Positions 2,703-21,523 of a DNA stretch of 64,000 nucleotides are shown in pieces. Made by a program: the position numbers and the translations under genes. This stretch comes from an uncultured Chloroflexia bacterium (GTDB taxonomy: Bacteria > Chloroflexota > Limnocylindria > Limnocylindrales > CSP1-4): NCBI GenBank assembly GCA_963749705.1, contig CAVVNQ010000003.1, forward strand, positions 544,001 through 608,000, read 5' to 3'. Below the pieces are notes generated by a model. It was given only the letters and a program-made list of their open reading frames with translations, did not search any database and was not told the DNA's origin. Position 1 is the stretch's first letter. Each line of letters begins with the position of its first letter.

Positions 2703-4256
2703 TCAGCGGTGCTCGAGCTCGCGATCGAACTGGCGCTTGAGGAGCCACAGGAACACGATCCCGGCCAGGATGAAGGCGAGGACGATCACCATCGCCTGGC
2801 GTCGGAAGACGCTCTCGTCGATCTTGGCCGTGGCCAGCTCCTGGGCCGCCTCCGCCCGTGCCTTCGCATCGGTGGACAGCTCGGCGACGAGCTTGAGCTT
2901 CGTGGTGTGCACGGATGCCTGCGCCTGGATCAGGCTCGTCTTGGCGCCGACCAGCCCCACCTCGGCATCCGAGGTGATCATGCCCAGCCGGGAGGCCTCC
3001 TCGATCTTTGCGCTGGCATCGTCGTAGGCCTGCTCGGCCGAGGTGACGGCGGTCGAGATCCCCTGGATCTGGGCGTAGATCTGCGAGTCGGGGTGATGGC
3101 AGGTGTCGCACCGCCGATCCGGCTCGCTCGCGAACCGGTTGAGCTGGAGCCGCAGCTGGTGGGTCACCAGGTCGTGGCACGTCGAGCAGTCGTAGTCGGG
3201 CGGCGTCGGGTGGAAGAACAGCTGCGAGCTGGGCTGCGACACATCGTGCGTTCCATGGCACGTCCAGCACTGCGGTGCCGCGGCCTGGAGCTCGGAATGG
3301 CGGCTCTGCTGATACAGCTCCTCGGTCGCGGTATGGCACTTGCCGCACACCTGGACGACCGTCGCCGATGTCGGCGGCTTCGCATCATGCGAGCCGTGGC
3401 AGGACGCGCAGCTGGGAGCCCGGACGTCCTTGTTCTCGAGCAGCGCCACGCCGTGGACGCTCTTGGAGTAGATCTCGTACTGGTCGGTGGGGATGCCGTA
3501 GGGCTGCATCCGCGCGGGATCCGCGTGGCAGGACGCGCACAGGTCGGGGACGTTCAGGGCGTACACCTTCGCCGTCGGGTCGGAGACCTTCTTCACGTCG
3601 TGCGAGCCATGGCAGTCGATGCAGATCGCGACCCGCGTGTCGGCGGCCGTCGCGAGCCGCTGGCCGTGGACGCTCGACCAGTACTTGGCGTACTCATCCG
3701 TGGGCAGGCCCGTGCCGCGCATTCGTTCGACGTTCGCGTGGCAGCTGGCACACACGCCGACGGCGTCCATTCGATCGGGGGCGCCGACGAACCCGTTCGA
3801 GGCGTCCATGGCCACCGTGATCTGGTCGGAGCGGGGATCGCCGCCGTGGCAGTCCGCGCACGTCACGCCCGCGGCTGCGTGGGCGCTCGTCTGCCACGCG
3901 GCCGCGATGGCCGCCTGCTTGTCGTTGACTGCACTGTGGCAGTCGTAGCAGCCGTTGGCGCCGCCGCCCTCGGGATGGGCGATGATCGCCGGAACGGGCG
4001 GCGGCGAGACGAGCGGGAGCTCGGACGGCTCGGGTGTCGCCCCGAACAGGGGGTTCAGGGTCGCGGATGCGGATGGGGTCGGCGTCGCCGTATCCGACGA
4101 CGCTGCCGGGCTGGGACTCTCGGCCACCGCCGACCAGGCGAAGGCGAACCACAGGATCACGGCCGCGCCGATCACGGGCGCGACCCGCAGCACGCGGCGA
4201 ATCGTCGTGGCTCGGGCGGGGTTCGGCCGCATGGGTGTCTCAGCCGACATAGCCAC
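2703..4256 (-). CDS. Membrane-anchored decaheme cytochrome c (third gene of the Rieske/cyt b operon)
   Basis: 10 CxxCH motifs counted (CYDCH, CADCH, CASCH, CIDCH, CASCH, CASCH, CGKCH, CWTCH, CSTCH, CDTCH). N-terminal signal/TM, Pro-rich linker, helical stalk and C-terminal TM. Confidence 0.9.
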   Translation of the reverse strand: MAMSAETPMRPNPARATTIRRVLRVAPVIGAAVILWFAFAWSAVAESPSPAASSDTATPTPSASATLNPLFGATPEPSELPLVSPPPVPAIIAHPEGGGANGCYDCHSAVNDKQAAIAAAWQTSAHAAAGVTCADCHGGDPRSDQITVAMDASNGFVGAPDRMDAVGVCASCHANVERMRGTGLPTDEYAKYWSSVHGQRLATAADTRVAICIDCHGSHDVKKVSDPTAKVYALNVPDLCASCHADPARMQPYGIPTDQYEIYSKSVHGVALLENKDVRAPSCASCHGSHDAKPPTSATVVQVCGKCHTATEELYQQSRHSELQAAAPQCWTCHGTHDVSQPSSQLFFHPTPPDYDCSTCHDLVTHQLRLQLNRFASEPDRRCDTCHHPDSQIYAQIQGISTAVTSAEQAYDDASAKIEEASRLGMITSDAEVGLVGAKTSLIQAQASVHTTKLKLVAELSTDAKARAEAAQELATAKIDESVFRRQAMVIVLAFILAGIVFLWLLKRQFDRELEHR

Positions 4257-19761: not shown

Positions 19762-21523
19762 GGGAGCTCTCTGCTTCGAGGTGGACGATGATCCTGGTCC
19801 CCTGCTTCGGGGCAGTATGCACAACAAGGGTGCCACCGATCTGTTCCACCCGCTCCCGCATGGACGCGAGCCCGAAGCCGCCGTCCATGGACCCGGCCAC
19901 GGTGCCCAGGTCGAAGCCGACGCCGTCGTCCTCGATCGTAAGCGTGGTCGCCGCGGTGGCGCACTCCATCCGGACCTGGACGTGGGTCGCCCGCGAGTGC
20001 TTGCGGGTGTTGGTCAGCGCCTCCTGCACGACGCGCAGCAGCTGGACCTCGCTGCGAGGCGTCAGCGAGGCGCGGGTGTCGCCATCGCAGGTGAGGGTGG
20101 CCGCGATCCCGGTCTGCCGGCTGTACTTGCGCAGGTACTCCCGCAGGGAGCCCTCGAGCCCCGTCTCCTCGCGAACGGTCTCGCGCAGCCCCAGGATCGC
20201 CTCGCGCACGTCCTGGTAGGCCTCGTCGGCGGTGTCGGCGATCTGCGACAGCTCGGCGGCCATGGTGTAGCTCGCCTCATCCTTGGCCCGGCCCTCGAGC
20301 GCGCGCAGCTGCAGGTGGATCACGCCCAGCACCTGGGCCAGGCTGTCGTGCAGCTCGCGTGCGATCCGGTCACGCTCGGCATGGATCGTCCACTGCTCCT
20401 CGGCTTCGTGGAGACGGGCCGTCCGAACGGCGATGGTCGCCATGTCGGCCAGTGCGCCCAGCAGCGTCCGCTCGGCCTCGTTGAACGCCTGCCCCGCGCG
20501 GACCACGCACAGCTCGCCCAGGATCCCGTCAGGCCCGCGCAGCGGTCGCGCCGCCCACGTCCGGTTCGCGTCGACCGCGAGCAGCGGGCACTCGGGGTTG
20601 CGCGGGTGGATGGCGCCCGTCGCGCGGTGGACGATCAGGCAGACGCTGCCGTCGTCCGCGATCGCCATGCGCCCCTGGCCGCCGGAAGACCCCGCACGGG
20701 TGGTGTCGGTGAGGCATACGACGGCGCGATCCGCACCCAGCAGCTCCCGCGCATGACCGGAGATCGCGTCGAGGACGTCGTGCAGGTCAGCCCGGCGAGT
20801 GAGCTGGAGCGCGACCTCGTACAGCGCGGCGCGCTCCCGTTCCCGGCGATGCAGATCCGCGACCGTGAGTGCGAGCTGCGCGGCGCCCGCGATCTCGCCC
20901 GTGATGTCGGCGAGCGCGGCGGGCGAGATGTCGGGATCGACCGCCGGATGGATCACGACGCGCAGGTGTCCGATCCGGTCGCGTCCCCGGATCAGCGGCA
21001 GGTCCAGGACGCCGGTGTCGAGCTCCGCCCGGCGCGTGAACGAGGGCGTGTCCTGCTCCGGGTCTGCCGGCGCATCGAGCAGCGGGGCGAGCCAGCTGAG
21101 GCCCGTCGCAAGCGGGTCCGGCCGGCGGATCGTCAACGGGTCGCCGCCCGGGGTCAGGATCGAGACCGTGCCGGCGATGGCGCCGGTCTGCGTGATGAGC
21201 CGGTCGAGCGCCTGCCCGAGCAGGTTCGGCAGGGCGAGGCCGCCCCGGACGGCGGAGCTCACCGCGTGGGTGACGGTGAGGTCCTTGTTCCGGGCCAGCA
21301 GCTGCTTCTGGGTGCGGTCGAGGTAGATCGAGACGAAGGTCGCAAAGATGACGATCGCGCCGCCCATGATCATCGCGGACAGCACGTGGGCGTCGTCGCC
21401 GGTGACCGTGCGATCGAGGAACAGGAACCGGACCACCTCGAAGGCCCAGACGAACACGACGGGCACGATCATCGTCGCCCACTTGAGGCGGTTGAGATCG
21501 CGTGCGCCCTGGGGTTCGCTCAT
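19718..21523 (-). CDS. Sensor histidine kinase (2 TM, GAF, HisKA_3)
   Basis: ERDRIARELHDSLAQ, QEALTNTRKHS, DDGVGF and GFGLASMRER. Confidence 0.92.
   Translation of the reverse strand: MSEPQGARDLNRLKWATMIVPVVFVWAFEVVRFLFLDRTVTGDDAHVLSAMIMGGAIVIFATFVSIYLDRTQKQLLARNKDLTVTHAVSSAVRGGLALPNLLGQALDRLITQTGAIAGTVSILTPGGDPLTIRRPDPLATGLSWLAPLLDAPADPEQDTPSFTRRAELDTGVLDLPLIRGRDRIGHLRVVIHPAVDPDISPAALADITGEIAGAAQLALTVADLHRRERERAALYEVALQLTRRADLHDVLDAISGHARELLGADRAVVCLTDTTRAGSSGGQGRMAIADDGSVCLIVHRATGAIHPRNPECPLLAVDANRTWAARPLRGPDGILGELCVVRAGQAFNEAERTLLGALADMATIAVRTARLHEAEEQWTIHAERDRIARELHDSLAQVLGVIHLQLRALEGRAKDEASYTMAAELSQIADTADEAYQDVREAILGLRETVREETGLEGSLREYLRKYSRQTGIAATLTCDGDTRASLTPRSEVQLLRVVQEALTNTRKHSRATHVQVRMECATAATTLTIEDDGVGFDLGTVAGSMDGGFGLASMRERVEQIGGTLVVHTAPKQGTRIIVHLEAESSRGTHSAASQGAARR

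Follow-up and report, generated by a model that had tools for sequence, protein, structure and literature searches.

A 17-gene operon, which probably allows monoderm soil and sediment Chloroflexota to pass respiratory electrons outside the cell without an outer-membrane pore, was identified in an uncultured Chloroflexia bacterium. It lies at 2703-21523 of a 64,000-nucleotide stretch of contig CAVVNQ010000003.1 (positions 544,001 to 608,000; this whole 64 kb stretch is called the window). All 17 genes are on the minus strand, as supported by open reading frame calls, codon-phase guanine plus cytosine (GC) content and family hits, and the order of transcription is Q P O N M L K J I H G F E D C B A. 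The export is predicted from two features: no outer-membrane markers were found, and the operon conserves a putative quinol oxidase together with a secreted hexaheme cytochrome, K. On balance, outward extracellular electron transfer through a polymer of K is favoured for these monoderm Chloroflexota, with both the polymerisation and the direction of flow as predictions. The operon is conserved at the level of the lineage and has dedicated maturation genes. It is neither a genomic island nor fully self-contained.

Hexaheme cytochrome K and its resemblance to OmcS

K (14195..15535; six CXXCH motifs) is a secreted hexaheme cytochrome c and a candidate filament subunit. The protein has 446 amino acids with a cleavable signal peptide of 26 residues and a conserved mature N-terminus, DGGPH, and the gene has the ribosome site AAGGAGG. 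Exactly 12 histidine columns are conserved in K, each in 61/61 and in 85-87 of 87 rows, and the histidine of CXXCHXXH is kept in 85/87 rows. OmcS has 12 histidine ligands for its six hemes, one of them coming from the neighbouring subunit (PMC6584659; papers are cited by identifier, each from the part of its text that was available). Profile searches with K found OmcS first at E 0.065 and then at E 5.5e-4 with an envelope over residues 3-407, and OmcS was the only full-length profile match shown. In the profile alignment His28 of K, in the first CXXCHXXH, is placed on OmcS His16, which Wang and co-workers are said to have described in 2019 as the ligand bridging to heme 5 of the neighbouring subunit. 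With a first structural model (mean predicted local distance difference test, pLDDT, 64), no chain other than OmcS (Z 4.0) reached Z >= 2. With a better model (pLDDT 74, predicted template modelling score 0.82), OmcS was first of 48,161 chains at Z 7.9, with a root-mean-square deviation of 3.9 Å over 203 aligned residues, 24% identity and residues 3-403 placed on 1-407, and MtrA came next at Z 4.7. Each measure is weak but the measures agree, pointing to a weak OmcS link. The preliminary description of this DNA had drawn a comparison with OmcS filaments and with the OmcS-like hexaheme of Thermincola, and the profile match, the structural match and the top Foldseek row support the name OmcS-like for K.

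A GC-rich hairpin was found just after the K stop codon (14143..14179, minus strand). It has a folding z of -2.88, and 0/200 shuffles fold as well. Hairpins with z <= -2 followed 58/82 K genes versus 3/27 E genes and 9/56 J genes, controls which are partly coding DNA. The hairpin is a candidate mRNA stabiliser or attenuator, and it is only suggestive of an excess of K message. Codon usage was rejected as a sign of high K expression: K stands at the 50th percentile of 1,719 crudely called genes, scored with a five-gene reference. Many relatives (L053, L054, L056, L060, L062, L080, L099, L100 and others) possess two or three K paralogues, sets which recall the omcS/omcT pairs. K or J is split over frames in L025, L039, L051, L058, L061, L072, L079 and L101, as a result of assembly error or of true breaks. 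The K family comprises at least 2,000 clusters at 90% identity, with 413 representatives at E <= 1e-30, and its distant homologues carry generic names only ('predicted CXXCH cytochrome'). In an atlas, look-alike clusters of K were mostly from Chloroflexota, Actinomycetota, Thermodesulfobacteriota and Bacillota, at a low recognition score that makes them a lead. No K match was found among 72,556 plasmids.

Exchange of the M-L-K cassette

Directly upstream of K lies L (15621..16676), a membrane-anchored NHL beta-propeller (PF01436; transmembrane helix 36-54), preceded by M (16678..17658), a membrane-anchored protein with TPR matches and the first gene of the cassette. Cassette analysis used the 27 of 72 loci which carry all seven genes M, L, K, Q, P, H and G. 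Within the cassette (M, L, K), the pairwise identities of the genes correlated at rho 0.80-0.91. Those of the flank genes Q, P, H and G correlated at 0.75-0.91, and the two flanks at 0.75-0.84 across the cassette, while cassette versus flanks gave only 0.06-0.35. In Q, P, H, G, F and E, locus L043 shares 95-99% identity with the window, against 67-72% in M, L and K. Compared with L043, locus L042 is nearer to the window in the cassette and farther in the flanks. The cassette and flank trees conflict with full support, and four reciprocal clade tests with the approximately unbiased (AU) test rejected congruence at p-AU <= 5.4e-5, reaching 1e-20, values which are optimistic as the clades were picked after seeing the trees. 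Whole-tree AU tests were left unused: they do not discriminate, since each topology was rejected against all others, even that of the upstream flank against that of the downstream one. By these sequence comparisons the TPR-propeller-K unit is best described as a cassette exchanged independently of both flanks, and the pattern suggests an allele-matched partnership of M and L with K.

Tetraheme cytochrome J, a candidate filament cap

J (12948..13970) is a secreted tetraheme with a signal peptide, a long Pro/Ser/Ala/Thr linker and then a heme domain. It possesses three CXXCH motifs and one CX3CH, whose Cys and His do not vary among the 26 relatives aligned at the site. In 44 relatives J is an octaheme with 18 invariant histidines for eight hemes, and its first motifs are like the N-terminus of K (35/44 by blastp, E 1e-9 to 1e-4). 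In the tetraheme form, represented by the window and 12 others, heme 1 is joined to hemes 6-8, with the loss of four hemes and eight invariant histidines. Within the heme domain of J, a K-like heme-1 module is fused to what are the last three hemes in the octaheme form. Nine histidines are present in 13/13 tetraheme proteins and a tenth in 11/13, for four hemes. In some relatives J also has LamG or PKD domains. A 2026 paper predicts that an 'anchor' cytochrome ending such a filament would have a spare histidine, and records none for omcE operons (PMC13712944). J would fit this description of an anchor or cap for K and is a filament cap candidate because of its K-type heme-1 module and its spare histidines.

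Quinol side and regulators

E (6663..8447) is a decaheme with one transmembrane helix and a NapC/NirT/NrfH N-terminal domain (PF03264; NrfH 2J7A at E 3e-9). Its M136, K169 and Q175 are invariant in 36/36 relatives and align with M49, K82 and D89 of NrfH. ImcH is described with that lysine and a His/Gln at heme 1 (10.1101/2023.05.03.539133). The comparison with ImcH-type quinol oxidases drawn earlier is supported by this quinol site, conserved in a membrane decaheme. With one transmembrane helix and 10 CXXCH motifs in place of three helices, one CX3CH and 5-9 CXXCH, the protein is here filed as ImcH-like, a predicted ImcH/ImdcA-like quinol oxidase.

C, B and A form a Rieske/cytochrome b complex. 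C (5333..5803; PF00355 and TM_PetC; RRAFL) is a Rieske protein with both boxes, exported by twin-arginine translocation (Tat). B (4240..5331; PF00033, PF00032) is a cytochrome b with petB and petD fused, four histidines and a PEWY motif. A (2703..4250) is the adjacent decaheme acceptor subunit, with 10 CXXCH, N- and C-terminal hydrophobic helices and local matches to NrfA. No CXXCK was found in the four cytochromes A, E, J and K. N (17922..18452; PF00355) is a lone Rieske protein with a Tat signal (RRVLL motif) and a possible lipobox, and is a candidate membrane-surface electron carrier. The box-2 motifs of the two Rieske proteins, CPCHDGHF and CACHDGVF, are both without the Ser/Tyr that marks high-potential clusters.

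Q (19718..21523; HisKA_3 by Pfam/NCBIfam) is a sensor histidine kinase with predicted transmembrane helices at 18-36 and 48-66 (hydropathy) and a loop of 11 residues between them. In its cytoplasmic GAF region C270, C295 and C312 are kept in 96-98% of 50 relatives. The lack of a periplasmic sensor loop together with three conserved GAF cysteines suggests that Q is a redox sensor. Nitrate sensing by Q and P was rejected, as Q has no periplasmic domain. P (19051..19761; Response_reg and GerE) is a NarL/LuxR-type response regulator overlapping the end of Q, and O (18463..18888) is a small receiver-like protein with a weak NarP receiver match (E 2e-5).

Maturation genes and operon architecture

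Four genes between J and E belong to cytochrome assembly or are candidates for it. I (11548..12714) is a membrane-anchored TPR protein with a weak CcmH/CycH-type TPR match, and is a candidate apocytochrome chaperone. H (9978..11444; PF05140, E 1.6e-70) is ResB/CcsB and G (9080..9964; PF01578, TIGR03144 over cut-off) is the CcsA/ResC heme lyase, both of System II cytochrome c maturation, followed by the ResA-type thioredoxin F (8455..9051; Pfam/NCBIfam). The System II set of the operon is composed of ResB, CcsA with its WWD domain and ResA, while the CcdA that completes it is supplied by a CcdA/DsbD gene outside the operon (C2:215851). Second genomic copies of ResB (C3:431416) and CcsA (C8:205160) support the view that the operon has a dedicated second copy of both. 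D (6070..6642; PF13798) is an optional lipoprotein of the PCYCGC family, a family of unknown function. The PCYCGC family adjoins ResB/ResA/CcsA or multiheme genes in several loci, including L136:4179-4469 of a distant Chloroflexota, which is a lead to a role in cytochrome c maturation.

The heme motifs amount to 10 CXXCH in A, 10 in E, six in K and the three CXXCH and one CX3CH of J. In six frames the whole window contains 31 CXXCH, of which 29 are inside these four genes, so the clustering of hemes is not by chance. No beta-barrel family was found over cut-off among the operon genes by Pfam and NCBIfam scans, and no Rfam element was found in the operon. A sigma-70 promoter scan (0 sites against 1.2 expected) and a count of terminator-like sites (five against 3.9 expected) were uninformative. 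GC content of the operon is 70.2% against 71.5% for the genome, and is lower, 67.3%, in the M-L-K cassette.

Most of the gene content in the preliminary description was confirmed. Codon-phase GC and family matches agree with its 17 co-oriented genes, and Pfam and NCBIfam with its two Rieske proteins, cytochrome b, ResA/CcsA/ResB, two TPR proteins, NHL propeller and kinase/regulator pair; the absence of a beta-barrel gene was likewise upheld. Its heme counts of 10, 10 and 6 hold, while its '4' for J includes the non-canonical motif. Two of the 17 genes, D and O, were not named in it. The claim of an own assembly system stands for the dedicated ResB and CcsA, and fails for CcdA. 'Self-contained' was not borne out, since CcdA and other quinol modules are located elsewhere in the genome. 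The term 'island' was rejected as well, as GC is near the genome value and the site is fixed in congeners.

Conservation and distribution

When GTDB genomes were scanned with K, 190 relatives were confirmed and 71 loci obtained. Their titles read Chloroflexi, Chloroflexia or Chloroflexota in 57 cases, Limnocylindrales or Limnocylindria in 11, Anaerolineaceae in two and Actinomycetota in one, in agreement with the Chloroflexota host proposed earlier. The bearers are uncultured soil and sediment bacteria. In Q, P, H, G and E, two loci titled Limnocylindrales (L099, L100) share 70-90% identity with the window, and they cluster with it in the flank tree, so the host probably belongs to the Limnocylindrales. 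K was present in 19/41 close relatives, 22/101 genomes of the family and 15/401 of the phylum, and in 0/16 genomes of 1.0-1.4 Mb from another family of the same order, which we take to be streamlined freshwater Limnocylindraceae. E was found in 24/101 family genomes, including all 22 with K, and the two cases with E only are contigs ending upstream of H.

The gene order is conserved among the 71 K loci and the congeners, which answers the question of synteny raised in the preliminary description. At loci chosen by K with enough flank, which are kin, partly overlap the genome draws and are not independent, the neighbours upstream of K were retained in 60/61 (L), 56/57 (M), 43/56 (N), 47/49 (O), 43/45 (P) and 33/34 (Q) cases, and those downstream in 58/59 (J), 50/54 (I), 45/47 (H) and 44/47 (G). 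Among 10 congeners, FdhD follows the operon in 10/10 and Fdh beta/NuoF-like genes precede it in 9/10. A, B and C were found together in 7/10 of them and D in 3/10; the Rieske/cytochrome b/decaheme unit A-B-C is optional. In more distant Chloroflexota (L134-L139), (M-)L-K is kept in other settings. The quinol module varies in distant loci, being a decaheme with cytochrome b561 in L134 and a ferredoxin/NrfD-type module inside the operon, between J and I, in L140 (15484-19214). One congener (G019, L027-L028) shows no N-O-P-Q matches upstream within the stretch read, and beyond fdhD it has a further, partial copy of M-L-K.

The operon was compared with four RNA runs (X1-X4) drawn from two studies. 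Contigs of the sediment run X1 matched 30/30 bins of it, and pieces of 323-876 bases with 0-1 differences covered E/D, F/G, G/H, I, K, L/M and Q. The other runs matched 29 (X2), 13 (X3) and 17 bins (X4, short partial matches only). The operon is present in RNA libraries, a result that speaks to neither level nor strand. Summed contig depth was highest over K in X1, X2 and X3; it was left unused, as depth sums alleles of several relatives and cannot rank genes.

Host envelope and metabolism

The host genome (G000) has 3.6 Mb and is 88% complete. No match to BamA, MtrB or TolC was found in it, and among 101 family genomes BamA occurred in one, on a 2 kb contig. Along with these absences, the genome possesses three transglycosylases and a Tad-type pair, and its envelope markers fit a monoderm host with a wall. 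A diderm host with porins encoded elsewhere, the counter-case of the preliminary description, was checked and no outer-membrane markers were found. The genome has two heme-copper oxidases and two further Rieske/cytochrome b complexes, and because of its two oxidases the host is probably a facultative aerobe. NrfA over cut-off and a PpcA-type triheme were not found in the host genome, and NarG was found in 0/25 genomes. The sole molybdopterin enzyme is the neighbouring formate dehydrogenase (Fdh).

The operon sits within this selenocysteine (Sec)-type fdh cluster, between beta/NuoF-like genes and fdhD. The alpha subunit (29563-31506, minus strand) reads through an in-frame TGA (SCNRT-U-HAP), and the same window has a tRNA-Sec (41812-41910, plus strand) and a SelB-like factor (about 44933-46003, plus strand). 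A second kinase/LuxR-type regulator pair is located just upstream of the fdh genes (24800-27156, minus strand). Elsewhere in the genome, a membrane-bound [NiFe] uptake hydrogenase (small subunit, large subunit and cytochrome b) is followed by a heptaheme cytochrome (G000:C6:48561-53805, L129). A separate contig carries a hexaheme-ferredoxin-NrfD-pentaheme module with a LuxR regulator (G000:C7:84108-88095, L130). A Tat-exported multicopper protein with a Pro/Ala linker (G000:C4:295352-296785) is a candidate NirK-like protein or small laccase.

Predicted route of electrons and alternative explanations

From the observed gene content, conservation, envelope markers and homologies, the activities, the polymerisation, the direction of flow and the acceptor may be predicted as follows. 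At low oxygen the regulators Q, P and O would switch the operon on. Electrons of formate, H2 or NADH would enter the quinone pool, a coupling predicted from the fdh cluster and hydrogenase genes present. Quinol would be oxidised on the outer face of the membrane by the ImcH-like E and, where present, by C-B-A, in keeping with their homologies. The ResA/CcsA/ResB set with the TPR protein I would load hemes on the exported apocytochromes, a function known for these proteins at the family level. K may stack head to tail as OmcS does, the CXXCHXXH histidine of heme 1 binding a heme of the next subunit. M and L may chaperone and seed K in place of an outer-membrane pore, as their co-exchange hints, and J may close or tether one filament end through its heme-1 module and spare histidines. 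The K wire would cross the wall to insoluble or bulky acceptors such as Fe(III)/Mn oxides, humic matter or partner cells. A stronger version, in which M and L form a complete barrel-free assembly line building an OmcS-like filament on a single membrane, with J as the in-operon cap or anchor and M-L-K exchanged like a pilin cassette under diversifying selection, is offered tentatively and is rather doubtful.

Several points weigh against conduction through a K filament. A single-sequence phmmer search of the PDB with K matched neither OmcS nor OcwA, and in the profile search MtrA and two OmcE chains outscore OmcS through local paired-CXXCH matches. Foldseek returned nothing relevant for the first model of K, and OmcS as its top row for the better model has E 0.26 and a template modelling score of 0.18. 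The Z of 7.9 is inside the range that the tool calls common and comes from a heme-free model with pLDDT 74. The 12 histidines also fit a closed monomer, the equivalent of K His28 is missing in 2/13 tetraheme J proteins, and the codon usage of K is at the 50th percentile. Physical linkage would be enough to move M-L-K jointly, and K has itself been shuffled relative to M-L. The host genome is incomplete and lacks even rplB, which makes absences in that genome alone soft. DNA carry-over may have contributed to the RNA contigs. The two heme-copper oxidases and two other Rieske/cytochrome b complexes make inward flow to O2 possible. In Geobacter, OmcS is reported to be dispensable for Fe(III) oxide reduction and for anode growth (PMC13194489), and CwcA of monoderm Thermincola was never purified (PMC7911101).

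The membrane, maturation and synteny evidence fits equally well an outward relay without a long filament, in which K sits in the wall as a short oligomer or a monomer, and surface reduction of humic quinones or chelated Fe(III) that reach the cell falls to J or to K itself. Some K homologues accommodate inserts of 100-380 residues between their heme motifs, and the linkers and LamG/PKD domains of J suit surface display. Such a relay is unlikely all the same, as the OmcS fold matches K from end to end, the histidines number exactly 12 with that of CXXCHXXH almost invariant, and the K-specific downstream hairpin and the spare histidines of J suit a many-to-one assembly.

A conduit running inward would take electrons from Fe(II), partner cells or reduced humics, by way of K and either E or A-B-C, and deliver them to the oxidases or, in reverse flow, to NAD+. 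It is harder to sustain and is considered improbable. The host has the two oxidases required, and Rieske/cytochrome b complexes can run in reverse. The chloroflexotal Ardenticatena performs both anodic and cathodic transfer (PMC5808234). Against this, within the available part of PMC6295460, Fe(III) reducers were the only organisms reported to have ImcH homologues. The location of the operon within a donor-side formate dehydrogenase cluster and the two Rieske boxes without Ser/Tyr also speak for outward flow.

The best NCBIfam rows, all under cut-off, were NarQ for Q, NarL for P, ExtP for B and NrfH for E, and with the local NrfA matches of A they would suit a reductase fed from the membrane and acting on a soluble acceptor (nitrite, sulfite or Se/Te oxyanions), with control of the NarXL type and either K or J as the catalytic cytochrome. 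The short loop of Q leaves no periplasmic nitrate sensor, invariant histidines in K and J suffice to fill every heme, CXXCK is missing from the four cytochromes, and neither NrfA over cut-off nor NarG nor a molybdenum enzyme other than Fdh was found in the genomes searched, which makes this reductase very unlikely. An electron store, buffering quinol in brief anoxia and discharged to O2 with no external acceptor, would suit the aerobic chain and the 30 hemes per operon set and has a precedent proposed for Geobacter periplasmic cytochromes (10.1101/2023.05.03.539133), and is the least probable of all, as it explains neither a swappable, fast-diverging secreted cassette nor adhesin-like domains on J.

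Significance

How cytochrome nanowires are secreted, started and ended was stated as open (PMC13712944). The current nanowire model needs an outer-membrane barrel, and the monoderm operon names minimal candidates for the process: K as subunit, M-L as scaffold and J as cap. Natural allele swaps make partner specificity testable by heterologous expression. If the barrel-free assembly line is true, a common soil and sediment Chloroflexota lineage would comprise overlooked nanowire-forming respirers. If electrons are exported through K, about a fifth of the sampled genomes in this family could respire iron oxides or humic matter. Standard searches would miss such organisms because K gives no single-sequence OmcS match and its homologues have generic database names.

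Comparison with known systems

A Coriobacteriales genome has been reported to encode an OmcS homologue (PMC7399161), and Ardenticatena, of the Chloroflexota, to be active on electrodes (PMC5808234). A Chloroflexota survey credits multiheme cytochromes mainly to Anaerolineae (10.1101/2021.08.23.457424), while a peat study describes porin systems of other phyla and makes no mention of Chloroflexota. The available parts of PMC7829351, PMC10954620, PMC12545173 and PMC10599522 contain neither an NHL annotation beside omcS nor data on the lineage. No description of the operon in Limnocylindria was found in the literature searched, whose scope excluded supplements and the osc survey. The preliminary description knew of no characterised system of this kind in such a lineage. 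A comparable pair of decaheme and OmcS-like hexaheme has been described in monoderm Thermincola (PMC7911101), so the kind of system is known; what appears to be new is the lineage, together with the assembly cassette.

Among porin-based systems, MtrCAB and Pcc (OmaB-OmbB-OmcB) are similar in being multiheme chains from quinol to the exterior, and K shows local paired-CXXCH likeness to MtrA, but the operon is without a porin and the host without outer-membrane markers. The operon belongs to neither the osc nor the porin-cytochrome systems, as the barrel and the diderm envelope are missing.

Resemblance is also found with OmcS of Geobacter sulfurreducens (6EF8/6NEF), which is likewise secreted and has six hemes, about 410 residues, little secondary structure and 12 histidine ligands. 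The osc cluster likewise keeps accessory genes and paralogues together (PMC13194489), and the omcE nanowire cluster, too, has a propeller gene and resB/ccsB at its flanks. K is, however, only 24% identical to OmcS over the 203 aligned residues, and most OmcS/OmcE regions are said to have a beta-barrel (PMC13712944), unlike the operon. It also differs from Geobacter in its monoderm host, in having quinol oxidases and regulators in the same operon, and in the lack of a PpcA-type triheme in the host genome. ImcH of Geobacter (GSU3259; NapC/NirT/NrfH superfamily) resembles E in the NapC/NrfH-like first hemes after the transmembrane helix and in the Lys and Gln at the heme-1 quinol site. E differs in its one helix instead of three, in 10 canonical motifs with no CX3CH and in an invariant CXXCHXM Met as in NrfH. 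Single-helix ImcH homologues have been reported in Anaerolinea and Intrasporangium (PMC6295460).

Further counterparts are ImdcA (Tfer_0070), PdcA, CwcA (Tfer_0075) and OcwA of Thermincola ferriacetica/potens, which is also monoderm and porin-free (PMC7911101). There an inner-membrane decaheme and an OmcS-like hexaheme are five locus tags apart, and here E and K are 5.7 kb apart; CwcA was modelled as a polymer through the wall (PMC7911101). In PDB searches no window cytochrome searched matched OcwA. Thermincola belongs to another phylum, and by description, the basis of this comparison, the present operon adds the Rieske/cytochrome b unit, the lone Rieske protein, J and the exchangeable TPR-NHL-hexaheme cassette. 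Taken with these likenesses, the operon may work like the ImcH-to-OmcS transfer of Geobacter and like ImdcA/CwcA of Thermincola (PMC7911101, PMC12203936).

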